Position numbers and translations under genes: made by a program. Shown one piece after another: positions 25,043 to 39,299 of a stretch of 64,000 nucleotides of DNA. How positions within the stretch are numbered: the first letter of the stretch is position 1; every line of letters begins with the position of its first letter. The stretch comes from Planctomycetota bacterium (GTDB lineage Bacteria > Planctomycetota > UBA1135 > UBA2386). The DNA lies in contig JBKAGP010000001.1 of the NCBI GenBank assembly GCA_046290465.1, forward strand, positions 416,001 through 480,000, written 5' to 3'. The notes beneath the pieces were generated by a model. It made no database searches, was not told the DNA's origin, and saw nothing but the letters and a program-made list of their open reading frames with translations.

Positions 25043-26812
25043 CTACCCGAGCACGTCGGCCAGCCCAGAACGGCGAGCCGGCCACAGGCGCAGGCCGGCG
25101 TCGAGCAGCTGCGCGTCGGCGCAGACGACGGCCTTGCGGCGGGCCCGCGTGACGCCGGTGTAGATCAGCGACGCGTGGTTGAGCGGGCTCTCCACGTCGG
25201 GCAGCACCAGCAGCACGTGGTCGAACTCGCTGCCCTGCGCCTTGTGCACGGTCATCGCCCAGGCGGTCTCGTGGGCGGGCAGGCGGCGCGGGCTCAGTTC
25301 GCGCGTGCGGCCGTTCTGGTCGCGGATCCAGACCACCGGCGAGCCGTCGTCGCGGCGCCCGCAGACGCCGAGGTCGCCGTTCCAGATGCGGTTGTTCTGG
25401 TCGTTGGCGGTCACCAGGATCGGGCGGCCGACGTAGTACGGCTCGTCGGTGCGGTGGCCGCGCTCGGCGAGGTGGCGCTCGACGTGCTGGTTCCACTGCA
25501 CCGCGCCGGTCGGGCCGAGCCGCATCGCGGTCAGCACGCGCGCGTGCGGGATCGCCGCCAACGCGCGCTCGGGGTCGTTGGCCAGCGCCGCGTCCAGCAG
25601 GTGCTCGAGCTGCGGCAAGAACGTCGCCAGCGCCGCGTCGGGATCGTGCAGCAGCGACAGGTCGTCGTGGCCGTGGCGCAGCGCCTCGAGCGCGCGGTCG
25701 GGTTGCCGCTGCATCAACGCCTGCGCGAACGCGCCGATGCCCGGCTGCTTGCCGAAGCGGTGGTTCTTCCACAGCGAGACCGTGGCGTTGGCGATCGGCG
25801 CGGCGTCCATCTGGGTCGCGACCTCCATGCCGGTCGCCTCGCGCACGAACGTCGCAAGCTCGGCGCCGAGGCCGCGCTCGGGGCGGGCGGCGTGGGTCAG
25901 GTCGCCGAGCACCTGGCCGGCGGCGACGGCGGCCAGCTGGTCCTTGTCGCCGACCAGCACCAGCCGCGCCCGTTCGTGCAGCGCGTCGCACAGCACCGCG
26001 AAGATCGCCGGGTCGACCATCGAGACCTCGTCGACGACGACCAGGTCGAACGGCAGCTGCTGGTCGCGGCCGAACCGGAACGCGTCGTCGAGCGGCAGGT
26101 AGCCGAGCAGCCGGTGCAGGGTGCGGGGCTCGAGGTCGCGCAGCGGCTCGGCCAGCTCGGGCCGTTCGGCGCCGCGTTCTGCCAGCGCTTCGCCGAGCCG
26201 CGCCGCCGCCTTGCCGGTCGGCGCAGCGATCGCGACGCGCAGCGTCGGGTCGTCGTGCAGCAGCACCGACAGCAGCTTGGCGACGGTGGTGGTCTTGCCG
26301 GTGCCCGGTCCGCCGCACAGCACCGTCAGCGAACGGGTGGCCCCGGCGACGACCGCGGCGAGCTGCCAATCGGGTTCGCTCGGTTGTCCGTCCGGCAGCA
26401 GCGACACGGTCTGCAGCGTCTCGCGCAGCTGGGCGGCACTGCGCAGCGGCGGCCGCTGCAGCCGGTCGGAGACGAACGCGGCGATGCGGCGCTCGGCGCG
26501 GAAGTGCCGCAGCGTGTAGAGGCGGTGCCGTTCGTCGAGCACCAACGGCAGCGGCGCCGCTCCCGGCGCGTCCGTCGTGACCACGCCGGTCGCGAGCAGG
26601 CCGTCCCGCGCTTCCTGCAGCGTCGGTCGCGGCGGTTCGTCGTCGAGCGGCGGCTCGTCGCACCAGGCGGCGAGGTCGATGCAGACGTGGCCCTCGTCGC
26701 GCGCGGTGCCCAGCATCAGGCACGCCCGTCGCAACAACTCGAGATCGCCGCCGCTGCCGAGCCGCGTCAGCAGGTCGGCGTGCAGCGTCGCCAGCGTCGG
26801 GGACGCGCTCAT
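25043..26812 (-). CDS. recD: Exodeoxyribonuclease V alpha subunit
   Basis: ATG26812 overlaps recB stop; GGPGTGKTT, APTGKAAARL, TLHRLLG, DEVSMVD, TVHKAQGSEF, YTGVTRAR. Confidence 0.95.
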   Translation of the reverse strand: MSASPTLATLHADLLTRLGSGGDLELLRRACLMLGTARDEGHVCIDLAAWCDEPPLDDEPPRPTLQEARDGLLATGVVTTDAPGAAPLPLVLDERHRLYTLRHFRAERRIAAFVSDRLQRPPLRSAAQLRETLQTVSLLPDGQPSEPDWQLAAVVAGATRSLTVLCGGPGTGKTTTVAKLLSVLLHDDPTLRVAIAAPTGKAAARLGEALAERGAERPELAEPLRDLEPRTLHRLLGYLPLDDAFRFGRDQQLPFDLVVVDEVSMVDPAIFAVLCDALHERARLVLVGDKDQLAAVAAGQVLGDLTHAARPERGLGAELATFVREATGMEVATQMDAAPIANATVSLWKNHRFGKQPGIGAFAQALMQRQPDRALEALRHGHDDLSLLHDPDAALATFLPQLEHLLDAALANDPERALAAIPHARVLTAMRLGPTGAVQWNQHVERHLAERGHRTDEPYYVGRPILVTANDQNNRIWNGDLGVCGRRDDGSPVVWIRDQNGRTRELSPRRLPAHETAWAMTVHKAQGSEFDHVLLVLPDVESPLNHASLIYTGVTRARRKAVVCADAQLLDAGLRLWPARRSGLADVLG

Positions 26813-29800
26813 CGCCGTTCCTCCCGAGCCCAGTCGTCGAGTGCTTCGACCAGCGCGCGCGGCGGCCGATCGTGGAACATGCCGCTGGTCTCGCCCGGCA
26901 GCGCGCCGCGCAGGAACGCGTAGCAGGCGCCGCCGAAGTGGCGATCGTAGTCGTAGTCGGGCAGGCGCGCGGTCAGGTGGCGGTGCCAGGCGAGCACGTA
27001 GAGGTGGTACTGCAGCACGTAGTCGTGGTGCTGCATCGCGTCGCGCACCGCCTCGTCGCTGTAGTCGGAGGCCTCGTTGCCGAGGTGGTTCGACTTCCAG
27101 TCGACGACCCAGTAGCGGCCGTCGTGCTCGGCGATCAGGTCGGCGAAGCCGGTCAGGAAGCCGGCCAGCGCGCGCGGGTTCAGCATGCGCAGGCGGTCGG
27201 CGTAGTCCGCGGCGACCTCGCCGCCGTGCTCGGCGAACCGCGTGGCCAGGCCCTGCGGGTCGGGCACCCCGATCGGCATCGTGAACTTCCACTCGACCAG
27301 GCGCCGGCCGCGGCACAGCTCGGCAATCGACGGGCCGTCGGCCGACGTGCGCGCCGCGGCGAGGTCGCGCAGGTTCTGCAGCACCGCGCCGGCCGGATCG
27401 AGGTCGCCCGGGTGGGCGTCGGCGTCGGCGAGGCCGTGGTGGGTCAAGGTGCGCTCGACGGCCCGGCGCGCGGCGTGCTCGTCGAGTCGGTCGAGGTCGA
27501 CGTTCTCGAGGATCGTGTGCAGGCACTGGCCGGCCTCGGCGCCGCGCGCGAAGCCGAAGATGCCGTCGCCCGGCGCGTCGTTGCGCAGCGCCGGGTCGCG
27601 GACCTCGTGCGCGTGGGCGCCCGGCTCGCTGCCGGCGACCAGCGACGAGAAGCTGTGCACTGCCAGCGGGCGGCGGCCGGGGACCTCGCGGCGGCGGCCG
27701 GCGACGACCGCGCGGCGCGCCGGCGATCCGGTCCGTTCGTCGGCTACCGGTGCGCGTGCCGCCGCGGCCTGCGCGGCCCGATCGACGCTAGCCCGGTCGA
27801 CGCTGGCCCGGTCGACGCCGATGCGGTCGACGCCGATAGCACCGTGGGTCGCCTCGACGAGCTTGTCGAGTTCGGCGTACATCGAGCCGGAGCCGGCGCG
27901 GTAGGCCTTGCCCCACTCGATCTGCCAGCCCTGCTTGTCGGCGGCCGGCGACGGGTCGAGCAGCCAGGCCAGCGCGCTCCAGTGGTAGCCGCCCTGGTAG
28001 GTGCCGATCGGCGCCCAGTGCACGTAGCAGCGCCGCTTGGCGCGGGTCAGCGCGACGTAGCACAGGCGCACGTCCTCGGCGAGGCGGTCGGCCTCGAGGC
28101 GCTGCCAGTCCGGATCGGCCTTGTCGGTCTCGAACGCAAACCGGCGGCCGCGCTCGGGTTCGTCGCCGCGCGGCAGCGAGACGTTGCGGGTCTGCTCGTT
28201 GCGCCCGTCCCACAAGAACGGACAGAACACCACGTCGTACTCGAGGCCCTTGCTGCCGTGCATCGTCAGGATCTGCACCGCGTCCTCGTCGGATTCGAGG
28301 CGCAGCTCGCGGCGCTGGTAGTCGATCTCGTCCTTGTGGGTGCGCTCGTGCCGCAGCCAGTGCAGCAGGCCTTCGGGCGACAGCCGGTGGTCGTGCTCCG
28401 CTTCGTGCAGCATCTCGCACAGCTGCTGCAGGTTGGTCAGCCGGCGTTCCCCGTCGTTGCGCGCGAGCATGCGCGTGTCGGCCTCGAGCTCCTGCAAGAG
28501 CTGCTCCTTCATCGCGACGAAGCCGCGATGGATCCACAGCTGGCGCCAGCGATCGAGGCGCATCAGCTCGGCCTCGAGGCGGTGTTCGTCGCGGTCGAGT
28601 TCGACCAGGTCGAGCGCGTCGAGCCCCCAGATGCGCGTGGTCAGCGCCGCGCGGGCGCGCATCAGGTCGTTGGGGCGCAGGATCGCGACCAACAGCCGTT
28701 CGAGTTCGATCAGCTCCTCGGTCTCGAACACGTCACCGGCCTTGCCGATCACCGACACCACCCCGGCTTCCCGCAGGTGCTCCTGCACCAGCACCGCCTC
28801 GACGTTGCGGCGCGTCAGCACCGCGATGTGGCGCGGCAGCAGCGGCTTGCCGTCGCGCTGCACGCCGCCGTCGAGCAGGCGGCGGATCTCGGCGGTGACG
28901 TCGGCGGCGATGCGACGGCGGCTTTCGTCGGGCTTGAGGTGGGTGGGCTGGCCCTTGCCGTCCTGCTCGAACGCGAACGTGCGGAAGCGCAGCGCCGGTG
29001 CGGTGCGCGTCGCGTCGGCGGGATCGTCGAGCTGGAGCTCGGTCGGTCCGGCGTTGGCGCGCACCTTGTGCATGCGGATGTCGTGCTCGACGAACGCGCC
29101 GGTGCGCCCGAACAGCTGGTTGACCGACTGGACCAGCTGCTGCGACGAACGGAAGTTGCGATCGAGCGTGTTCTTGGTGACGGCGTCCTCGACCGCGGTC
29201 AGGTAGGTGCGCAGGTCGGCGCCGCGGAAGCCGTAGATCGACTGCTTGGGGTCGCCGACCAGGAACAGCGGCCGGTTGGCGAACGCCGTCGACAGGATCT
29301 CGTATTGGCGGTCGTCGGTGTCCTGGAACTCGTCGATCAGCGCGACGCGGTAGCGCTCGCCGAGCGCGCGCAGCAGCGGCTCGCGGCGGCGCGGGTGGCG
29401 GATTGCGCCGTGCGCCTTGCCCAGCAGGTCGTCGAACGTCAGCACCGCGCGGTCCTGCTTGAGCGCCGACAGCCGGACGTCCATGCGTCGCAGCAGCTCC
29501 GTGCGCAGGTGGTCGAGCGTCACCTGCCAGCGTGCGTGCACCTCCTCGCAGCCGGCGAAGAACGGCCGCTCCAGCTTGAACTCGTCGTTCTTCAGGATGC
29601 GCTTCTTCATCGGCGTCGGCGCCAGCGTGTCGAGGAACTCGAGGCAGCGCTCGGGGTGCTCGACCATCCAGGCGGCGTGTTGGCGCAGGTAGCCGTGCAG
29701 ATCGCCACGGCCCGGCGCCTTGTTGCTGTCGCCGGCCTTGCGCCAGCGGAACCCCTCGATGTCGCCGATCAGCTGGTCGTCCCACGTCGCCGCCGCCGCA

Positions 29801-30453
29801 TGCACGGCGGCGCGCAGGTTGCTCAGGTGCACGCCGAACTGCGGCTCGTCGGGATCGAGCGCGGCGTCGGGGTAGCGCCGCCAGCCGCGGTAGAGGCGGA
29901 CCAGTTCGTCCGGGGGCAGCTTGGCGTGGTGCATCACCGCGCCGAACATCGGGCCGTCGTGCTCGCGCAGCGAGCGCAGCGCGTCGGCCGCCGCGTCGTG
30001 CCACAAGGGGCCCTCGTCGACGGCGAAGTCGAGGTCGAACGGCTGGTCGCTCTCGAACGCGGACTCCTCAAGCAGGCGCTTGCAGAAGCCGTGGATGGTC
30101 ATCACCGAGGCCTGGTCGAACTCGTCGAGCGCGCGCCGCAGCCGCTGGGCTCCCTGCTTGCCGTGGCGACGCAGCCCGGCGAAGAACTCGTCCTGGTCGT
30201 CGGCGCCGAGGCACACGGCCAGCGCGCGTCGGATGCCGGCCCGCAGGCGGTTCTTGAGTTCGTCGGCGGCGGCGACCGTGAACGTCACCACCAGCGCCTG
30301 CTCGACGTGCTCGACCACCCCTTCGAGCAGCATGCGCACCAGGATGCCGGTGATCGTGTAGGTCTTGCCGGTGCCCGCGCTCGCCTCGAGCAGCACGGTG
30401 CCTTCGTCGAGCGGCGCGTCGGCCAGCGCGAACCGTTGGTAGCCGTTGGCCAT
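26809..30453 (-). CDS. recB: Exodeoxyribonuclease V beta subunit
   Basis: ATG30453; EASAGTGKT, DEFQDTD, GDPKQSIYGFRGAD, TMHGSKGLEY, YVALTRAK, nuclease GFADL...DWKSNHLG, QYHLY. Confidence 0.96.
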   Translation of the reverse strand: MANGYQRFALADAPLDEGTVLLEASAGTGKTYTITGILVRMLLEGVVEHVEQALVVTFTVAAADELKNRLRAGIRRALAVCLGADDQDEFFAGLRRHGKQGAQRLRRALDEFDQASVMTIHGFCKRLLEESAFESDQPFDLDFAVDEGPLWHDAAADALRSLREHDGPMFGAVMHHAKLPPDELVRLYRGWRRYPDAALDPDEPQFGVHLSNLRAAVHAAAATWDDQLIGDIEGFRWRKAGDSNKAPGRGDLHGYLRQHAAWMVEHPERCLEFLDTLAPTPMKKRILKNDEFKLERPFFAGCEEVHARWQVTLDHLRTELLRRMDVRLSALKQDRAVLTFDDLLGKAHGAIRHPRRREPLLRALGERYRVALIDEFQDTDDRQYEILSTAFANRPLFLVGDPKQSIYGFRGADLRTYLTAVEDAVTKNTLDRNFRSSQQLVQSVNQLFGRTGAFVEHDIRMHKVRANAGPTELQLDDPADATRTAPALRFRTFAFEQDGKGQPTHLKPDESRRRIAADVTAEIRRLLDGGVQRDGKPLLPRHIAVLTRRNVEAVLVQEHLREAGVVSVIGKAGDVFETEELIELERLLVAILRPNDLMRARAALTTRIWGLDALDLVELDRDEHRLEAELMRLDRWRQLWIHRGFVAMKEQLLQELEADTRMLARNDGERRLTNLQQLCEMLHEAEHDHRLSPEGLLHWLRHERTHKDEIDYQRRELRLESDEDAVQILTMHGSKGLEYDVVFCPFLWDGRNEQTRNVSLPRGDEPERGRRFAFETDKADPDWQRLEADRLAEDVRLCYVALTRAKRRCYVHWAPIGTYQGGYHWSALAWLLDPSPAADKQGWQIEWGKAYRAGSGSMYAELDKLVEATHGAIGVDRIGVDRASVDRASVDRAAQAAAARAPVADERTGSPARRAVVAGRRREVPGRRPLAVHSFSSLVAGSEPGAHAHEVRDPALRNDAPGDGIFGFARGAEAGQCLHTILENVDLDRLDEHAARRAVERTLTHHGLADADAHPGDLDPAGAVLQNLRDLAAARTSADGPSIAELCRGRRLVEWKFTMPIGVPDPQGLATRFAEHGGEVAADYADRLRMLNPRALAGFLTGFADLIAEHDGRYWVVDWKSNHLGNEASDYSDEAVRDAMQHHDYVLQYHLYVLAWHRHLTARLPDYDYDRHFGGACYAFLRGALPGETSGMFHDRPPRALVEALDDWAREERR
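27775..27837 (-). repeat. In-frame 15-bp tandem repeat in the RecB helicase-nuclease linker (VDRIG VDRAS VDRAS VDRAA)
   Basis: Repeated cggtcgacgc cores at a 15-bp period. Confidence 0.75.
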
Positions 30454-33400
30454 CACGTCACCTCCTTCAGGAAGCTCAGCGCCGGCTGCCACAGCTCGCT
30501 GGCCAGTCGGTAGAACTCGCCGTCGACGCCGGCGTCGATCGGGTCGCGGTCGCGCATGCACAGCGCGACCGCCTCGTCGCCAAGGTCGTAGCGAAACGGC
30601 TCGCTGCGATCGCCGAGTTCGTACTCGCGGCGGGCGCGGCGCAGCAGGGACTCGGGGTCCTTCTTGCCGCCGCTGCCGACCACGAACGAGCTGCGTTCGA
30701 AGAACGGCAGCGGACGGGTCAGGCCGGTGCGGAACAGCTGCACCAGCCGTGCGAGCAACGTCACGGCCTGGTCGCCGGGCACCGGCAGGAACTCGTGCTC
30801 GGCGTCGCCGGACAGCACCCGGGTCCGGTTCGGCCAGGCGGGCTCGGCGTCCGGCTGCTGCGCTGCCTGCAGGCACAGCACCAGGTGTTCGATCCAGGCG
30901 CGCATGCGATCCTTGGCCTTCAGCTTGCTCACCCGCATGTAGGTGCGACCGTCCGGGCCGAAGCCGTGCATCTGGCCGGTCAGTCGGGCGCCGGGAGCAT
31001 CGGCACGACCCAGCTGCACGTCGACGCGACGCGCCACGGTGTGCGCGTACTGCCGCGCCTCGTGCAGCAGCCTCTGGGTGTCCGCGCGCAGCGCATGGAA
31101 CGCGACGTCGCCCTGCGCGCCGACCGGCAGCACCCCGTGCTGTCGCGTCCACGCCAGCGGGTCGCCGTGCTCGTCGTCGCCGCGCTGCGCCCGCCGCACC
31201 GCCTCGTCCTGCAGGTGGTAGCGCGTCAGGCCGTCGATCTCGAACGGCTCCGCCGCGTCCTCCTGCTCCTCGTCCTGGCGCACGCGAACGCGCAGGCCGC
31301 GCTGCAGGAAGAACCGGCACGGGTGCCACCAGAACTGCAACAGGTCGTCGAGCGCGACGTGCTCGCGCGCGTCCTCGGGCACCTCGAGCACCGCCTCGTC
31401 GGGCGGGCACCACGGCGCCGGGCCGGCGTCGTCGTCGCCGATCGCCGGTTGCCGCGCGTAGGTGAACAGCCGCGCGTCGCCGCCGCCCCGGTAGCGCGGG
31501 CTCCAAGGCTGCAGCGGGTGGCCGACGACCAGCAGTTCGGTCGCGCTGCGGCGGCCCTCGGTGGTGCAGGTCCGTTCGACGTGTTCGAGCAGCTCCGACA
31601 GCACCACCGACGGCGCGCCCTCGGCGTTGTCCTTGGCCGAGTGGCCGACGAACGTCAGGTGCAGCCGGTCGCGCGCCGCGAGCATCAGGTCGAGGAACAG
31701 CTGGCGGTCGTCGAGGCGGCGGCTGCGGTCGCCCGGCCGCGCCCTGGCGGCGATCAGGTCGAACGGCGACGGGTTGTCGCGCCGCGGGAACGACTCGTCG
31801 TCGAGGCCGCAGACGAACAAGGCCCGGACCGGCACGGCGCGCATCGGCAGCATCGCCGCGAAGGTGATCGCGCCGCCGAGGAAGCCGCGGTCACTCTGGC
31901 CGGGCAGGCGGCTGTGGCTGGCGCCGTGCGCGAGCGCGCCCTCGAGCCACGCGTGCATCACCGCCGGCTGCAGCCGTTCGACGTGCGCGGCGGTGCGCGC
32001 CTGGCCGCGCAGCGCGACGGTCGCGCGGCGCAGGTGTCGCACGGCCTCCTCCTCGTCCGGATCGCCCGCCTCGAACAGCTCGGCGACGGCCTGGTCGACG
32101 CGATCGGCCCAGTCCTGCAGCGCGTGCGGCTGGCGCAGCGCCGCGACCTGCGCGAACAGCACGCGCGTGAAGGCGACGAAGCGGGCCAGCAGCTCGGCGC
32201 GCGCCTCGGTGGTGTCGCCGACCGGAGCGCGGCCGCAGACGAGTTCGTCGAGCGGGCCGGTCAGCGTGCCGAGCAGCAGCCGTTCGAGGCCCGGCCGCCA
32301 GGCGTTGTCGTCGAAGGCCGGCAGCTCGAAGTGCTCGCGGCGGCTGTCGCCGTCGAGGCCCCAGCGGATGCCGGCCTCGCGGCACAGGTGGCGCACGACC
32401 GGCACGTCGCTCGGGAACAGGCCGAAGCGACGTTGGATCGCCGGCGTCTCGAGCAGATGCAGCACCTCGGCCAGCGTCAGCCGCGTGCGGGCCAGCTCCA
32501 GCACCTGCAGCAGCGCGCGGCAGATCGGCAGTTCGCGCGCCGGGTGCCGGTCGGCGAGGTGGAACGGCAGGCGGTGCTGCAGCGGGCCGAACACCGCGTG
32601 CGCGTAGGGCGCATAGCGATCGACGTCGGGCACCAGCACCATCACGTCGCGTGGCTGCAGCGTCGGGTCGGCGTCGAACGCCGCGCAGATCTGGTCGCGC
32701 ACGACCTCGAGCTCGCGCTGCGGGCTGTGGCAGTCGTGGATGCGCAGGCTGTCGTCGTCGGCCCGCAGCACGAACGGCGCGGCGTCCCGTTCGCCGCGGT
32801 CGAACGCCTGCACGAGATCCTGCTGCAGGCACGCCAGCAGCGTGTCGGGCACCCGGTCGTCGTCGACGAACGTGTCGAGCGGGTGTTGCTCGACCGGCAC
32901 GTCGTGGTCCGAGCGCTCCTCGAGGTCGACCAGCATGCCCTGGAAGTCGCGGCTCTCGGCGCCGAACCGCGCCAGCAGCGCGTTGTCGCCGCTGCGCTTG
33001 CTGCGTTCGCGCAGGTCGCCGACGAAGTGCGGGGTCGGCTGCGGCACGAACAAGTGCACGTCGATGCGGTGGCCGATGCGGTGCAGCACGTCGAGGAAGG
33101 CCGGCGGCATGGTCGTGGTGCCGAACACCCAGAGCCTCGGCGGCAGGTGCTGGCGGCACCAGGCCTGGTCGTCGAGCCGCGCCCGCAGCGACGCGATCCG
33201 GTGGGCCTGCTCGCACGACGGCGGCGGCGGCGGTTCGGCCAGCTCGGCGAACAGCAGCGGCGTCGCGTCGTCGCCGCGGCGGGAACGGTCCTTCTTCTGG
33301 TCGGGCAGCTCGAGGCCGGCGTCGGCCAGCAGCGCGCGCCACAGCCGGGCCTGCCACGGGGCGTGCTCGGACAGCGCCTTGTGGTCGTCGCCGCGCGCGA

Positions 33401-33848
33401 ACGCGTCGAGCAGGTCGTCGCGGTAGAGCTGGTAGTCGTCGAAGCACGCGCTGAGCCGCGTGCACAGCTGCAGCCGCTTGCGGCCGTCGTGGTCGTTCTC
33501 GATGTAGTCGCTGGCGGCGCCGAAGCGGTCCTTGTCGGCGGTGGCCTTGCTGCGCTCGCCGAGCAGCCGCCAGAGTCGCCAGACCAGCACCTCGCGCGCG
33601 AACGGGTCGCCGTCGGGCCCCGACGGCTCGGTCAGCTGGTGCAGCCACGCGCCGAGGAACGGCGTCTCGACGCCGGCGGCGATGCCCAGCCGTTCGGCGA
33701 GCCGCAGCTCGAGCCAGCGCGCGATGCCCTGGCCCGGAACCAGGATGGTCTCGGTGGCCATCGGGTCCGCCGGCGACGACGCCAGCTGTTCGCACAGCGC
33801 GTCGAACAACGCCTCGAGTCGGTGCCCCGTGATGACCGTTACGCCCAC
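30453..33848 (-). CDS. recC: Exodeoxyribonuclease V gamma subunit
   Basis: HRLEAL, ETILVPGQGIARWL, FDDYQLYR, CHSPQRELEV, PMRAVP, HPLQPWS; GTG start. Confidence 0.95.
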   Translation of the reverse strand: MGVTVITGHRLEALFDALCEQLASSPADPMATETILVPGQGIARWLELRLAERLGIAAGVETPFLGAWLHQLTEPSGPDGDPFAREVLVWRLWRLLGERSKATADKDRFGAASDYIENDHDGRKRLQLCTRLSACFDDYQLYRDDLLDAFARGDDHKALSEHAPWQARLWRALLADAGLELPDQKKDRSRRGDDATPLLFAELAEPPPPPSCEQAHRIASLRARLDDQAWCRQHLPPRLWVFGTTTMPPAFLDVLHRIGHRIDVHLFVPQPTPHFVGDLRERSKRSGDNALLARFGAESRDFQGMLVDLEERSDHDVPVEQHPLDTFVDDDRVPDTLLACLQQDLVQAFDRGERDAAPFVLRADDDSLRIHDCHSPQRELEVVRDQICAAFDADPTLQPRDVMVLVPDVDRYAPYAHAVFGPLQHRLPFHLADRHPARELPICRALLQVLELARTRLTLAEVLHLLETPAIQRRFGLFPSDVPVVRHLCREAGIRWGLDGDSRREHFELPAFDDNAWRPGLERLLLGTLTGPLDELVCGRAPVGDTTEARAELLARFVAFTRVLFAQVAALRQPHALQDWADRVDQAVAELFEAGDPDEEEAVRHLRRATVALRGQARTAAHVERLQPAVMHAWLEGALAHGASHSRLPGQSDRGFLGGAITFAAMLPMRAVPVRALFVCGLDDESFPRRDNPSPFDLIAARARPGDRSRRLDDRQLFLDLMLAARDRLHLTFVGHSAKDNAEGAPSVVLSELLEHVERTCTTEGRRSATELLVVGHPLQPWSPRYRGGGDARLFTYARQPAIGDDDAGPAPWCPPDEAVLEVPEDAREHVALDDLLQFWWHPCRFFLQRGLRVRVRQDEEQEDAAEPFEIDGLTRYHLQDEAVRRAQRGDDEHGDPLAWTRQHGVLPVGAQGDVAFHALRADTQRLLHEARQYAHTVARRVDVQLGRADAPGARLTGQMHGFGPDGRTYMRVSKLKAKDRMRAWIEHLVLCLQAAQQPDAEPAWPNRTRVLSGDAEHEFLPVPGDQAVTLLARLVQLFRTGLTRPLPFFERSSFVVGSGGKKDPESLLRRARREYELGDRSEPFRYDLGDEAVALCMRDRDPIDAGVDGEFYRLASELWQPALSFLKEVT

Positions 33849-33854
33849 ACGGCG

Positions 33855-33860
33855 AACCTA
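33855..33860 (-). promoter_or_regulatory. -10 element TAGGTT 6 nt before the recC GTG (putative leaderless start)
   Basis: TAGGTT-cgccgt-GTG, no SD. Confidence 0.55.
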
Positions 33861-33889: not shown

Positions 33890-35833
33890 TCAATGCCCAC
33901 CGCAGCAGCCGCCGTCGCTCGAAGGGTCTGCAGGTTCGGTGCCGGCAGCGTCGTGGTTCGCACCAGGGTCGCCGTGGTGATGGTGGTGGTGAGGATGGTG
34001 GCCGTGGCCATGGTCGTCGCCGCCTGGTCCGACGTTGGCGGGCGACTCGAACAGCCGTTCGAGGAATGGCCGCACGCCCTGGCGCAGCAGCGACCAGCCG
34101 AACACCGCGGCGAGCAGCCACAGCCACAGCCACGCGGTGGTCGAGGCGTGCGCGTGTTCGGAGAACGCCGCCATGTCGGGCACCGAGACCAGCCAGTTGG
34201 CGACGTAGCCGAGGCCGACCGCGCCGATCCACATCGACAGCGCGAACACCAGCGCGGTGCGCGTGCCGTGCAGCCGCGCCAGCACGCCGAACGTGGTGAC
34301 GTTGGTCGCCGGGCCGGTCAGCAGCAGCGCCAGCACCGCGCCGGGCGACAGGCCCTGCACCAGCAGCATCGCGGCGAGCGGCGTGCTGCCGGTCGCGCAG
34401 ACGTACAGCGGCAGGCCGATCAGCGCCGCGATCGGCACGTCGATGCCGGCCGGCAGCGACGCGATCCAGTCGCGGTCGACGTAGGGCATCAGCATCGCCG
34501 ACAGCAGCAGGCCGGTGAGGATCCAGGTCGCGGTGCTGTCGACCGCCGGGCCGTAGCCGAACCGGACGGCGGTCTTGAGGCGCCCGAGCAGGCCGGTGGC
34601 CTGTCCCGACGGCATCGTGCAGCAGTCTTCGCTGGCGGCGGCTGTATCGACCTTGCGGGCCCGCGCGAACGAGGCGACCAGCACGCCGACGGTGAGCGCC
34701 AGCGCGGCGGCCATACCGGCGCGGACCAGCGCGACTTCGCCGCCCATCAGCTGCCAGGTCAGCATCACCGCGGCCAGTTCGAGTTCGGGCGTGGCGACCA
34801 GGAACGCGATCGCCGCCGCGACGGCGGCGCCCTGCTTGATCAGCTCGCGGTAGATCGGCACGACGCCGCACGAGCAGACCGGCAGCGGCAGGCCGACGGC
34901 GACGCCGCGCAGCGCCTGCGACAGGCGCGAGCCGCGGGTCAGCGACTGCAGCCAGTTGGCCGGCAGGAACGCGTGGCACAGTCCGACCAGGAAGTATGCG
35001 AACAGCAGCGCCGGCGCGGACTCGAGCGCGAGCTGGGTGAAGACCTGCAGCGGGCCGCCGTGCTCGCTCTCGGGGAAGTGGTCGTGGATGACGAACCACA
35101 GCACCGCGACGCCGAGTGCGGCGCCGACCACCGAGGCGGGGCGGAGGCGGCTCTGTTCGCGCGGTGCAGGGATGTGGGCGTGCAGCACGACGTGCAGCAG
35201 CGAGCCGACCAGCAGCGACTGCAGCAGCGCCAGCGCGTTCTGCGAGTCCTCGGTCAGCACCTGGCCGCCGAGGAAGTAGCCGAACAGGGTCGCGCCGACG
35301 CTGGCTGCGGTGATCAGGATCGCGGCGCGCACCCCGAGGGTTCGCGGCACGATCCACCAGATGCCGAGGCCCTCGGGGATGCGGTGCAGGATCACGGCCC
35401 ACGCGGTCAGTTCGTGGGTGCCGGCGTGTTGGTGGCCTTCGTGGGCGCGGCCGCCGGCCTCGAGGAACAGGCCGTCGAGCGTTGCGTGCGCGGCGATGCC
35501 GAACACGGCCAGCAGGATCACCGTCTTGCGCATGCCCTCGTGGCCGTGGTGGATCGTGCGTTCGGCGATCGACGGCAGCACGAATCCGAACAGCGCCAGC
35601 GGCAGCACCAGCCAGCCGGCCTGTTCGGCCGACTCGGGCAGCAGGTGCAGCAGCGCGAAGCCGCTGATCGTGATCAGGCAGAAGCTGTCGAGCGCGACGG
35701 TCGACCACGCGTGGCTGCGCAGCAGGTAGACCATCAGCGGCCCCGCACACAGCGCCAGGAAGCCGAGCGCCAGATACCACTCCGACGACAGCGTCGCCGG
35801 CACGGCCGGCCAGAGCATGGAGAACGACAGCAA
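33890..35833 (-). CDS. Metal permease: N-terminal ZIP-like domain fused to a DUF318/SO_0444-type permease, poly-His C-tail
   Basis: LLHLLPES, HATLDG, LHRIPEG (ZIP-like); PLPVCSCGVVP, PLYVCATGSTP, TGPATN (DUF318); tail DDHGHGHHPHHHHHH...GGCCGGH; start TTG35833 or ATG35818. Confidence 0.85.
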   Translation of the reverse strand: MLSFSMLWPAVPATLSSEWYLALGFLALCAGPLMVYLLRSHAWSTVALDSFCLITISGFALLHLLPESAEQAGWLVLPLALFGFVLPSIAERTIHHGHEGMRKTVILLAVFGIAAHATLDGLFLEAGGRAHEGHQHAGTHELTAWAVILHRIPEGLGIWWIVPRTLGVRAAILITAASVGATLFGYFLGGQVLTEDSQNALALLQSLLVGSLLHVVLHAHIPAPREQSRLRPASVVGAALGVAVLWFVIHDHFPESEHGGPLQVFTQLALESAPALLFAYFLVGLCHAFLPANWLQSLTRGSRLSQALRGVAVGLPLPVCSCGVVPIYRELIKQGAAVAAAIAFLVATPELELAAVMLTWQLMGGEVALVRAGMAAALALTVGVLVASFARARKVDTAAASEDCCTMPSGQATGLLGRLKTAVRFGYGPAVDSTATWILTGLLLSAMLMPYVDRDWIASLPAGIDVPIAALIGLPLYVCATGSTPLAAMLLVQGLSPGAVLALLLTGPATNVTTFGVLARLHGTRTALVFALSMWIGAVGLGYVANWLVSVPDMAAFSEHAHASTTAWLWLWLLAAVFGWSLLRQGVRPFLERLFESPANVGPGGDDHGHGHHPHHHHHHGDPGANHDAAGTEPADPSSDGGCCGGH

Positions 35834-35879
35834 AGCGCCGGCAGGTTAGGCCAAGCGCCCGCCCCGTTCTAGTTCACGA

Positions 35880-35960
35880 AGGTTGCCGTACGGTACCTGG
35901 TTCATCCTCCAACGCGCTCGCGAACGCTGGCAGGATGAACCAGGTACCGTACGGCAACCT
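35880..35960. repeat. Perfect 29-bp inverted repeat with a 23-nt spacer (REP/REPIN-like or RNA hairpin)
   Basis: AGGTTGCCGTACGGTACCTGGTTCATCCT (35880-35908) pairs with AGGATGAACCAGGTACCGTACGGCAACCT (35932-35960). Confidence 0.92.
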
Positions 35961-36478
35961 CAGGACAGGGCTGCTTCGATGGTGGCGCGGGCTCGGTGGA
36001 GGCGCGAACGCACGGTGCCGATCGGCAGGCCGAGGCGGTCGGCGACGCCGGCGTAGTCGAGGCCGGTGCGCTCGTACAGTTCGAAGGCCTCGCGCTGCGG
36101 GCGGGGCAGCGTGTCCAGGGCACGGTGCAGGCGCTCGGCGGTCTCGTGCGCGACGGCGACGTGCAGCGGGTTGTCACAGCCCTGGTGCAGGTCGCAGTCG
36201 TGCGAGGCGACGTGCTCGTGGTGGCGACGCCGGCGGGCGGTGCGGCGGAGGTGGCGGCTGCGCAGCACGACGGCGCGCACCAGCCAGGCGCGCGCGTTCT
36301 GCGGCCGCTCGGCCTCGCGCCAGAGCGCGACCAGCGCTTCCTGCACGGCGTCGTCGGCGAGGTGGTTGCAGCCGAGCAGGCGGCGTGCGACCGCGCGAAC
36401 GGCCGGCAGGTGCGGGGTGGGATCGGGGAGGTGCGCGGGCGCCGCGGTGGCGGCGTCGGGCGGGGCGACGTGGGTCAT
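35960..36478 (-). CDS. ECF-type RNA polymerase sigma factor (172 aa) with His/Cys-rich linker
   Basis: ATG36478; region 2 ADDAVQEAL...AWL; region 4 YAGVADRLGLPIGTVRSRLHRAR; linker HHEHVASHDCDLHQGCDNPLH. Confidence 0.9.
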   Translation of the reverse strand: MTHVAPPDAATAAPAHLPDPTPHLPAVRAVARRLLGCNHLADDAVQEALVALWREAERPQNARAWLVRAVVLRSRHLRRTARRRRHHEHVASHDCDLHQGCDNPLHVAVAHETAERLHRALDTLPRPQREAFELYERTGLDYAGVADRLGLPIGTVRSRLHRARATIEAALS

Positions 36479-36566
36479 CGGAACGGAACAGATGCGGGTC
36501 TCGGCACAGCGCGGGGCTGCGGGCGGCACACCGGACGAGGCGGCGGGCCGCGCGGGATACGAGGAC

Positions 36567-36992
36567 TCAGACCGTTCGGTACGAGGGCGCGCGCGGCGGC
36601 GGCCGCACGCAGGTGGCGTCGACGTCGGCTTCGATGCAGATGGTGCGGAGCGGCGCCGCCGCGAGCGGGCCCGCGGGCACGACGACGACCGCGAGCGGGG
36701 CGCCGCCCGGACTCTGGTCCTCGAGCTGGCACGCCAGGCACGTCGAGCACGGCTCGCCGTCGTCCGGCTGGTGCTCGCCATTCGGATCGAGATCGCCCGA
36801 ATCCAGAGCACCCGAATCCACGTCATCGGCGTCGGTATGCACCACGCCGCACGCGCACACCTCGACCCCGCATGCCGCGCGGTGGTGGCAGTCGTGGCCA
36901 CCGTGCAGCAGCGGCAGCACCAGACGCAGGCACATCGCCAGCAGCGCTGCGAGCGCGGCGAGGCGGAGCTGGAATGGCGTGCGGCGGGACAT
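36567..36992 (-). CDS. DUF2946-like (CruR/CutF-like) exported Cys/His-rich leader protein
   Basis: ATG36992; signal/TM helix, HGGHDCHH..C....CAC, CSTCLAC, Pro-rich C-terminus RPPPRAPS. Confidence 0.72.
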   Translation of the reverse strand: MSRRTPFQLRLAALAALLAMCLRLVLPLLHGGHDCHHRAACGVEVCACGVVHTDADDVDSGALDSGDLDPNGEHQPDDGEPCSTCLACQLEDQSPGGAPLAVVVVPAGPLAAAPLRTICIEADVDATCVRPPPRAPSYRTV

Positions 36993-37059
36993 CGAGCGAC
37001 GCACGTTATGCCAAATCCCGCGCACCCGCCAGTTCTGCCGAGCGCAAAGGGCGCCGCGG

Positions 37060-37916: not shown

Positions 37917-39299
37917 GTGCAACGACCCTCCGCCAGCGTGCGCCTACTGCTCGCCGCCTGCCTGCTCGTGTGTGTCGGCCCGACGCCGGCGCAGGGCGCG
38001 ATCCCGATCGGCGACCCCGAAGGCCTGCCCGCGAAGCGGCGTGAGGTCGAACGGCACGGCATCACCTGGACGTTCGACAAGCCGTACGTCGTCGGCGCGT
38101 TCGCCAACGGTGATCCGTGGGTGATCGGGCCGGTCAAGGTGGTGGCGATCAGCCCGGAGACGACCGTCGAGGACGGCCGCGCGTTGCACGGCTCGATGGT
38201 CGATCCCGATCCGTCGACCGAGAACCAGGGCTACGACGGCGGCCTCTACGGCAACGGCACCAACGAACGTTACGTCGCGAAGCTCAACGTCGCGGTCGGC
38301 CTGTCCGCGAAGGCGCCGCTGCGGCTGCAGGCCGGCCAGAGCCTGGTCTCGGTCGAGAGCCGGCCGAAGACCGACGCGCCGCCGACGCTGCTGCGCGCGT
38401 CGGTGTTGACGGTGCTGGCGCGAAAGCCCGCGCCCGATGCCTTCCGGCCGCCGTACGTGAAGGGGGACGCCGCGACCAAGAAGCCGCGCTTCCGGGTCGC
38501 CGATCTCGACTTCCGCGCGCTGCAGAAGCTCGCTCCGGTCGGCGACGTGCCGCTGATCGAATCGGTCACGCGGCGGTTCGAGAAGCTGTGGCTCGACCAC
38601 GTGCCGGCGTGGGTCGCGCGCTACATGCACCCGCTCGAGAACATGCCCGACTACGGTCGCGACATCGCCGCGTTGGTCGGCAGCGCCGGGCTGATGCTCA
38701 ACCTCGACCTGCCGAAGAAGCGCAAGCAGGAGCTGTTGGTGCACTTCACGCAGCTCGGCATCGACAACCACGCCAAGCTGCTCGCCGGCTGCCGCTGGCA
38801 CGGCCTCGGCGGCCACGGCCACGGTCGCAAGCTGCCGATCCTGGTGGCCGGCCGCGTGCTCGGCGACGAGCGCATGCTGGCGGTCGGCAAGGACTACGTC
38901 AGCAAGCCGAAGCAGGCCGGCGGCAACGGCGGTTGGTTCGGCGAGGACACGCAGACGTTCTACGTGCGACGCACCGGCGACCGCGAGTGGAACTGGGGCT
39001 TTGGCAACTACACCGAAGAACACGAGGACCTGCCCGAATGGGGCTTCGCGCACGCCGACTCGCCGGACCGCGACGACCACCGCTGGGAGGGCAATCCCTA
39101 CCGTCGCTGCTGCACGGCCAATGGCTGGGTGGCGCAGTGCCTGACCGTTCGTGCGATGGGGCTGGTCGACGAGTGGAACCACCCGGCGTGGTTCGACTAC
39201 ATGGACCGCTACCAGCAGCACGAGCACGCCGAGGACTGGCACCGCAGCTGGGTGCCGTGGCACCCCGCGATGTGGGCGGCCTACCGCGACAAGTTCTGA
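37917..39299 (+). CDS. Secreted hypothetical protein (460 aa), possibly polysaccharide lyase-like
   Basis: Signal peptide (..PTPAQG|A), GITWTFD..VGAFANGDPWVIGP, Trp/Tyr/His-rich C-half WNHPAWFDYMDRY; TAGCCT-N6-GTG start. Confidence 0.75.
   Translation: MQRPSASVRLLLAACLLVCVGPTPAQGAIPIGDPEGLPAKRREVERHGITWTFDKPYVVGAFANGDPWVIGPVKVVAISPETTVEDGRALHGSMVDPDPSTENQGYDGGLYGNGTNERYVAKLNVAVGLSAKAPLRLQAGQSLVSVESRPKTDAPPTLLRASVLTVLARKPAPDAFRPPYVKGDAATKKPRFRVADLDFRALQKLAPVGDVPLIESVTRRFEKLWLDHVPAWVARYMHPLENMPDYGRDIAALVGSAGLMLNLDLPKKRKQELLVHFTQLGIDNHAKLLAGCRWHGLGGHGHGRKLPILVAGRVLGDERMLAVGKDYVSKPKQAGGNGGWFGEDTQTFYVRRTGDREWNWGFGNYTEEHEDLPEWGFAHADSPDRDDHRWEGNPYRRCCTANGWVAQCLTVRAMGLVDEWNHPAWFDYMDRYQQHEHAEDWHRSWVPWHPAMWAAYRDKF

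Follow-up and report, generated by a model that had tools for sequence, protein, structure and literature searches.

A three-gene locus from an uncultured Planctomycetota bacterium probably encodes a CruR-type, metal-OFF switch for zinc limitation, in which a leader peptide with a ribosome arrest motif would control the gene of an extracytoplasmic function (ECF) sigma factor that turns on zinc-scavenging genes. The locus occupies 33890..36992 on the minus strand of a 64,000-nt stretch of DNA (the window, whose coordinates are used throughout) that corresponds to positions 416,001 to 480,000 of contig JBKAGP010000001.1 in assembly GCA_046290465.1, a genome labeled G000 here. Three co-oriented genes encode the leader, the sigma factor and a permease, in that order, and are followed by recC. 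An earlier note on this DNA had singled them out as rich in metal ligands, and all three open reading frames (ORFs) were recovered. The genes are real and co-occur within one uncultured Planctomycetota family; the order leader-sigma-permease was observed in 8 of the 33 genomes that encode the core form of the sigma factor. Homologues with names are proteins of Planctomycetota metagenome-assembled genomes.

The comparison set consisted of 60 sigma loci, made up of 34 core loci (33 genomes) and 26 loci of a sister clade; leaders at sigma loci were found by a rule-based search, and five lower-GC loci (L066-L069 and L073) were placed by tblastn coordinates. Against the background of its own genome the locus is singular, since a CxxHxxC motif occurs in 1 of 56 ECF-like proteins, the window sigma factor, and a leader-like ORF lies upstream of 1 of 56 ECF-like genes, at the same locus. 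Across a sample of the phylum, a match to the sigma factor was found in 16 of 301 genomes, with a leader at 5 of the 9 distant loci examined. A search for related loci in genome contigs gave 7 close Planctomycetota relatives among the best 80 loci, the rest including generic ECF genes, and so does not bound the range of the system. A viral scan returned only 7 matches, all weak or short and generic.

The leader ORF (P0001, 36567..36992, minus strand) encodes 141 residues with a hydrophobic N terminus, a His/Cys-rich middle and the C-terminal end RPPPRAPSYRTV. H30, C85 and P136 are invariant in 22 sequences. A hydrophobic segment at residues 11-28 (36909..36962; hydropathy 2.39), either an export signal or a signal anchor, is followed by a conserved R-x3-P-x2-H, and a CxxC motif (CLAC, residues 85-88; 36729..36740) lies 45 residues before the predicted arrest motif (36582..36593). 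The same distance separates CxxC from RAPP in CruR, where the spacing is required for regulation (PMC9426467). [quoted passage not shown] A leader is present at 19 of the 34 core loci, and the distance from CxxC to RAPP, RGPP or TAPP is 44-45 residues in all 19. Only H30, CxxC, RAPP and this fixed spacing are conserved among the leaders. Of 39 leaders, 20 gave a match to the DUF2946 profile at E<=10 and 2 exceeded its cut-off, and P0130 bears the name of a DUF2946 protein at NCBI. The DUF2946-like character proposed in the earlier note was supported by the CruR-type anatomy of the leader; the window protein itself gave no match to PF11162. No second credible leader was found in the window genome.

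In the assembly, the arrest motif reads RAPS, which the earlier note had taken as the end of the protein (RPPPRAPS); four more residues follow it, and read data give a different motif. All four runs that cover position 36584 (X1, X2, X3 and X6, from three studies) carry a Pro codon there, giving RAPP. Over 1,169 nt this position is the sole difference between run X1, which may be the window's own sample, and the window, and the database protein P0124 also ends in RAPP. Therefore, RAPS is most likely an assembly error or a private mutation and RAPP the motif in its natural form; the idea that the Ser variant has a meaning of its own was rejected on these data. CruR arrests when its two Pro codons occupy the P and A sites (PMC12992588). 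Variation between strains in the leader was uninformative, with 6 synonymous and 10 non-synonymous changes that spare every Cys and His and cause no frameshift.

The geometry of the leader bears on where it might sense metal. The ribosome tunnel accommodates 30-40 residues. During a stall at RAPP, the CxxC would sit at the tunnel exit, whereas export would be possible for the His/Cys cluster of residues 30-52. Given this position of CxxC, and given that CruR senses cytoplasmic Cu and does not need its signal peptide (PMC9426467), the periplasmic sensing suggested in the earlier note is uncertain. In the sister clade, leaders were found at 24 of 26 loci, and 22 of these end in AP-x-x-SPP and contain no CxxC. 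These His-rich leaders (L096-L120), with ends of the form AP[KHG][QH]SPP, are often followed by a gene for a secreted NHL-repeat protein, and such ends possibly represent a second class of arrest motif.

The leader is positioned to control the sigma gene: it lies directly upstream and carries a promoter box that the sigma gene then lacks. A TANNNT box was observed 6-15 nt ahead of the in-frame leader start at 19 of 20 leader loci; in the window this -10-like box (37003..37008, minus strand) lies 10 nt before the leader ATG and is the predicted housekeeping promoter of a leader-sigma mRNA. The sigma gene has a TANNNT box of its own at 13 of 15 leaderless loci but at only 1 of the 20 with a leader; among 722 spacers taken as background, 29% have one. 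Because the -10 box precedes the leader and not the sigma gene, the latter is likely to be transcribed through the leader wherever one exists. The spacer between them (36479..36566, minus strand) is C-rich (41 C and 26 G in 88 nt), contains neither a Shine-Dalgarno sequence nor a -10 box and is a candidate Rho-loading region. C exceeded G in 19 of 20 leader-sigma spacers compared with 62% of 722 controls, a bias that is modest in size (skew of 0.13 versus 0.06, S.D. 0.15), and a rho orthologue is present in the window genome. No excess of structure was detected for a hairpin over the sigma start, with pairing of 0.59 versus 0.62 and a minimum free energy per nucleotide of -0.37 versus -0.42 in controls. 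No hairpin hiding a Shine-Dalgarno sequence in the manner of CutF is apparent, no such sequence being visible and folding being no stronger than in controls. With no Shine-Dalgarno sequence, no extra folding, a spacer in which C exceeds G and Rho present, CruR-type attenuation is weakly favored over CutF-type unmasking.

The sigma factor (P0002, 35960..36478, minus strand, 172 residues) scored 48.4 bits against Sigma70_r2, 59.6 bits against Sigma70_r4_2 and above the cut-off of TIGR02937. It consists of sigma2 and sigma4 only, its best structural matches are SigL, SigH and SigE chains, and no anti-sigma gene was found on either side of it. A C37-x-H39 pair (36362..36370), placed by the model in the loop that connects sigma2 helices one and two, is joined by a linker cluster, H87-E88...C95-x2-H98-x2-C101-x-N-P-x-H106...H111 (36146..36220), that is predicted to form an on-board metal site. 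In an alignment of 40 of the 120 homologues listed, C37, H39, E88, C95, H98, C101, H106 and H111 were invariant in all 40, and a CxxHxxC-type linker motif was present in 32 of 35 core loci. The structural model is an ordinary sigma2-linker-sigma4 chain with no metal geometry, the cluster falling in the internal stretch of lowest confidence (predicted local distance difference test, 58-70). The description of the protein as an ECF sigma that has a His/Cys linker and no neighboring anti-sigma was thus confirmed, with the refinement that the ligand-type residues are conserved. By contrast, sensing of metal excess in the manner of CorE found no support, since the CxC linker and the C-terminal Cys-rich domain are absent and the predicted targets are zinc-limitation genes. 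Members of the sister clade carry a CxxC either in the linker or in the C-terminal tail, and this shift suggests selection for metal binding.

The targets were predicted from sequences shared upstream of genes near the sigma factor in relatives. These neighbors include an outer-membrane-type protein together with ZnuA, ZnuC and ZnuB, a Tad secretin, CobW, FolE2 and DUF4198, and the shared upstream pattern, GGAAC[CT]-N13-CGGCA(C), gives a predicted sigma promoter of GGAAC-N14-CGGCAC. The motif precedes the operon for the outer-membrane protein and ZnuACB, a ZigA-like CobW gene, DUF1826, FolE2, a MerC-like gene and Tad pilus genes. Core-sigma genomes hold 25 copies of the outer-membrane gene, and an exact match precedes 19 of them; the corresponding figures are 1 of 16 for copies in other genomes and 2 of 400 for random windows. 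This count is partly circular, since many of the counted loci had served to derive the motif, and related genomes are not independent. In the genomes of the Tad type, where the sites were mostly held out, the relaxed pattern stands ahead of both the Tad secretin (9 of 9) and the flp pilin (8 of 8). When a matrix built from other genomes was applied to the window genome, the site of DUF1826-cobW came first among 167 hits. Genomes of the divergent sigma clade carry a variant, [CT]GAAC-N14-CGGCAT, and in a sigma-negative genome (G031) none of 10 motif matches precedes a gene. From this co-occurrence, adjacency and clade-matched variation, we infer that the sigma factor reads the GGAAC-N14-CGGCAC motif.

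The window genome contains 18 exact matches, of which 4 lie at credible gene starts, 0.55-0.8 Mb from the window. These predicted target sites precede the Tad secretin (G000:C1:1005892), DUF1826-cobW (G000:C1:1010036), flp-tad (G000:C1:1010086) and the MerC-like gene (G000:C1:1245418). The genes znuABC, COG0523, DUF1826 and FolE2 belong to Zur regulons and respond to zinc limitation (PMC2770081). The CobW protein scored 596.8 bits against the ZigA family (cut-off 600), FolE2 exceeded its cut-off and the binding protein of the uptake operon was nearest to AztC. The two Fur-family proteins of the window genome scored best as Fur and PerR/Irr, not as Zur. Three of the genes concerned have features of their own. 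The Tad/Flp cluster is complete (G000:C1:1005926-1019377; L205, L206), with DUF1826-cobW inserted on the opposite strand so that the predicted promoters lie back-to-back; its pilin has 120 residues, and a typical Flp pilin is shorter. The MerC-family membrane protein behind its predicted promoter (G000:C1:1245468-1245926; L246:7468-7923) is encoded beside folE2 in another genome (G180) and is a candidate zinc importer rather than the product of a mercury gene. The outer-membrane-type protein that heads the znuACB operon (L070:8159-9625 and relatives) has no Pfam or NCBIfam match and occurs in 40 of the 60 family genomes.

The strongest argument that leader and sigma factor respond to one signal comes from the ways in which they are combined. 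Among 41 copies of the outer-membrane gene, 24 are preceded by the promoter, 12 by a leader directly in front, 5 by neither and none by both. CxxC and RAPP or RGPP are 45-46 residues apart in 10 of the 12 direct leaders, 4 of the 12 exceed the DUF2946 cut-off and these leaders are found mostly in genomes that do not encode the core sigma factor. The remaining 15 of the 34 core loci have no leader. For 14 genomes whose sigma gene is leaderless, a search that covered 28 genomes, included incomplete assemblies and recovered 1 known hit gave no leader at any other place. One further genome (G015; L072, L075) encodes the core sigma factor twice, with a leader at one copy and none at the other. The same uptake operon would thus be controlled by a leader alone, by the sigma factor alone or by both in series, and therefore leader and sigma factor would each sense the same signal. 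The gene arrangement expected of the two-tier cascade from leader to sigma factor that the earlier note had envisaged does occur among these wirings, but it is not obligatory, as leader-only and sigma-only wirings are also found.

A second partition concerns the output. Of the 60 family genomes, 33 encode the core sigma factor. An orthologue of the Tad secretin is present in 9 of these and the outer-membrane gene in the other 24, so that no genome has both or neither. On the sigma tree the split requires 3 changes, 2 of which are forced by well-supported branches; this tree (42 rows, 7 of them ungrouped, with 19 sister loci left out) does not represent the phylogeny of the species. The split could also reflect habitat or lineage. 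In the window genome, queries for the outer-membrane and Znu proteins were unmatched and the Tad cluster is present. A ZnuA family search found no match in the window genome or in 6 of the 9 Tad-type genomes, but because 7 genomes with the outer-membrane gene were also unmatched, this result is no proof of absence. We advance only tentatively the wider proposal that in these planctomycetes Zur has been replaced by a positive zinc-starvation circuit of two interchangeable sensors, an arrest leader and an ECF sigma factor with a new Cys/His zinc site, which act alone or in series, and that the Tad/Flp cluster is an alternative zinc-acquisition machine that takes the place of the outer-membrane protein and ZnuACB.

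The switch would operate as follows. When zinc is scarce, the ribosome would stall at the leader RAPP and block Rho, so that transcription continues into the sigma gene; the sigma factor would be made, be active and turn on scavenging genes at GGAAC-N14-CGGCAC promoters. When zinc is present, the nascent CxxC would bind metal and release the stall, after which Rho would terminate transcription in the C-rich spacer, both steps being proposed by analogy with CruR. The Cys/His cluster of the sigma factor may also bind zinc and thereby inactivate the protein, as a second and partly redundant OFF switch. This last step is suggested by the analogy with OrbS and by the 14 genomes in which the sigma factor occurs and no leader was found.

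Besides the modest skew of the spacers and the circularity of the motif count, several observations weigh against this interpretation. The window leader was unmatched by DUF2946 (PF11162), its RAPP allele scoring 15.1 bits against a cut-off of 23.7. Of the 18 exact motif matches in the window genome, 14 are not before a credible gene start; one genome has the motif and no detected sigma factor (G192), and two have the sigma factor and no exact motif (G123 and G061). The binding protein of the uptake operon also matches MntC (74 versus 93 bits, both far below cut-off). At 3 distant loci in another family, Cys-free sigma factors keep the leader and the promoter motif, so that the on-board site is dispensable there. 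Finally, at most loci of family f10 the genes nearby are not metal genes and no motif was detected around the sigma gene.

The third gene of the locus encodes a fusion permease of 647 residues (P0003, 33890..35833, minus strand). Its C-terminal half contains an ArsP_1/DUF318 domain (residues 262-546; 34196..35050) that scored 143 bits against a cut-off of 32.3 and carries invariant CSCG and VCA motifs; against NF033936, the family of SO_0444, the permease scored 208.7 bits, below the cut-off of 300. The N-terminal half is the only Zip-like match in the genome, at 26.5 bits against a cut-off of 35.1, and in Foldseek searches it matched BbZIP chains with a probability of 1.00, a target template-modeling score of 0.41-0.52 and weak E values of 0.15-0.28. 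Its putative transport-site helices (35093..35530) contain invariant H116, D120, H150, R151 and P153; H116, D120 and H150 would lie at the metal site of ZIP transmembrane helices 4 and 5, with Arg at the second-site position. The motifs and tail described in the earlier note were borne out, with CSC at 320-322, VCA at 478-480, His6 at 615-620 and a CCGGH end. When the permease alignment was searched against the sequences of solved structures, only His-tag artefacts came back, and the result was discarded.

The position of this gene invites a different account, in which leader and sigma factor answer to metal excess, following the logic of CutF or CorE, and the neighboring permease gene, turned on by the sigma factor, encodes an efflux pump. 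The permease gene is directly downstream of the sigma gene in 18 of the 33 core-sigma genomes, its C-terminal half resembles SO_0444, whose mutant is Zn/Cu-sensitive (PMC3219624), and in three genomes (G002, G009 and G040) the promoter motif lies between the two genes. However, the motif occurs within 300 nt of the permease at only 2 of 31 loci, once inside the sigma ORF, whereas a -10 box plus start precedes it at 21 of 31 loci, compared with 31 of 3000 random windows. In the window this TANNNT box (35843..35848, minus strand) lies 9 nt before the permease TTG and is predicted to act as a sigma-independent promoter; no ECF promoter was found before the permease or the leader. Moreover, the permease is present in 48 of the 60 genomes, many of which do not encode the core sigma factor, the predicted targets are uptake and zinc-sparing genes and the sigma start has no conserved hairpin. 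This account is therefore improbable, and the idea of the earlier note that the sigma factor drives the permease was not upheld. The permease is probably a transporter for zinc homeostasis whose gene is linked to the sigma gene but has a predicted housekeeping promoter to itself, being reached at most by read-through from the leader-sigma mRNA. Neighbors can thus mislead, the adjacent permease probably not being the target. Still less probable, and indeed very unlikely, is that the small protein acts in trans as a membrane anti-sigma factor or an exported metal buffer. Its membrane segment, its His/Cys-rich exported part and its place beside an orphan sigma factor would suit such a role, but only about 10-20 residues precede the hydrophobic segment, conservation is confined to the residues and spacing given above and 12 copies of the uptake operon, most of them in genomes that do not encode the core sigma factor, have an ORF of this kind immediately in front. 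Furthermore, the ORF is always upstream of the sigma gene and takes over its promoter.

Two other explanations accept the leader as a metal sensor and differ in what they assign to the sigma factor or to the signal. The leader may be the sole metal sensor, the Cys/His residues of the sigma factor holding a structural zinc or acting as a redox switch and the leaderless sigma factors being constitutive or under an unlinked factor. The Cys-free relatives, the lack of metal geometry in the model and the redox role of conserved Cys pairs in other ECF groups (PMC7826278) are in keeping with this explanation. Nevertheless, the leaderless core loci (15 of 34) retain the ligands, with the promoter still ahead of the uptake operon, no leader was found elsewhere in 14 such genomes and the sister-clade CxxC moves between linker and tail; we regard sensing by the leader alone as a minority possibility, though one worth weighing. 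Alternatively, the wiring could be as proposed and the signal could be Co, Ni, Mn, Cu or a general shortage of metal. Copper is the metal that CruR and CutF sense, proteins resembling CutF are encoded ahead of Ni/Co genes as well (PMC9973294), MntC ranks second among the matches of the binding protein and the MerC-like and DUF4198 genes are not zinc-specific. Against this, the ZigA-like CobW, DUF1826 and FolE2 are markers of zinc limitation, and copper genes lie behind none of the promoter sites examined, which makes a metal other than zinc unlikely.

Other features of the locus were also recorded. A 29-bp perfect inverted repeat upstream of the permease (35880..35960; arms 35880-35908 and 35932-35960) consists of two copies of a dispersed, REP-like 34-nt element with 63 copies and 8 adjacent inverted pairs in the genome. 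The pair is strain-variable, 61 bp being absent from runs X2 and X3. It is not a conserved part of the locus, and as a 63-copy repeat that varies between strains it was ruled out as a dedicated terminator. In most close relatives, recC-recB (26809-33848, minus strand, in the window) follows the permease; in two genomes (G005 and G007) the sigma gene lies directly before recC, and leader and permease are absent from the locus. TANNNT boxes at 33855-33860, 35843-35848 and 37003-37008 (minus strand) lie 4-10 nt ahead of the recC, permease and leader starts, with no Shine-Dalgarno sequence, and therefore near-leaderless mRNAs are probably widely used in this lineage. On the plus strand, 37917-39299 encodes an exported protein of 460 residues with no Pfam match at E<=1.

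[quoted passage not shown] If the proposed switch is correct, it would comprise a zinc-sensing upstream ORF and a zinc-starvation sigma factor with a defined promoter, would reach its regulon in trans and would control zinc uptake independently of the usual repressor. The three natural wirings indicate that leader and sigma factor can exchange roles over one operon, and the mutual exclusion of Tad and uptake genes makes metal acquisition by a pilus a concrete prediction. In the literature covered, which was mostly open-access, there was no DUF2946 leader before a metal-related ECF sigma gene (supplementary neighbor lists could hold cases), no zinc-starvation ECF sigma factor and no zinc-regulated Tad cluster. 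The available text of the CruR paper (PMC9426467) names no sigma factor among DUF2946 neighbors, and the text part of the supplement on ECF groups (Casas-Pastor 2021) contains no mention of DUF2946, DUF318, ZnuA, CobW, MerC, a pilus or CGGCA. Arrest peptides upstream of ECF genes are already in print for Streptomyces lividans, with no link to metal (PMC12992588); new here are the promoter, the regulon in trans, the three wirings, the exclusion between Tad and uptake genes and the removal of the permease from the list of targets.

The closest known leader is CruR (Bp2923) of Bordetella pertussis, with which the window leader shares its position as first gene, an export signal and a CxxC 45 residues before RAPP, and also a long spacer, a bias of C over G and an output in metal acquisition (PMC9426467). 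CruR controls a TonB transporter, whereas the window leader would control a sigma factor and hence a regulon in trans; in addition, the predicted metal is zinc, and an extra His/Cys cluster follows the signal. CutF of Rhodobacter capsulatus is likewise a DUF2946-type exported leader with a Cys motif and a Pro-rich end, in which copper switches a detoxifying oxidase ON by melting a hairpin over the Shine-Dalgarno sequence (PMC9973294; 10.1101/2025.02.05.636593). By contrast, the window locus has neither a Shine-Dalgarno sequence nor excess pairing at the start, and its predicted targets are uptake genes. In S. lividans, SLIV_33595 and SLIV_33605 similarly place a RAPP/RGPP arrest peptide directly upstream of an ECF sigma gene, but these peptides have four transmembrane segments, and no metal motif, regulon or metal link is described for them in the text available (PMC12992588).

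Among sigma factors, CorE and CorE2 (ECF44/ECF238) also have no anti-sigma factor, conserved Cys residues and a metal context; they are activated by metal excess through a linker CxC and a C-terminal Cys-rich domain (PMC6851896, PMC7826278), whereas P0002 has a CxH in sigma2, a CxxHxxCxNPxH in the linker and no tail, ending at the last sigma4 helix. OrbS of Burkholderia cenocepacia is a starvation ECF sigma factor with an on-board Cys OFF sensor and a second layer that responds to the same metal, but that metal is iron, the Cys cluster is C-terminal and the upper layer is Fur repression rather than an arrest peptide (PMC9023288). The permease is similar to SO_0444/ArsP_1 (DUF318) and to ZIP in its CSCG and VCA motifs and its Zip-like N-terminal half, and differs from both in combining the two domains in one chain that scores below both cut-offs. 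Finally, znuABC, COG0523, DUF1826, FolE2 and an outer-membrane protein form a target set resembling that of the Zur regulon (PMC2770081), but here the set is predicted to be under positive control by an alternative sigma factor and to include a Tad cluster and a MerC-like gene.

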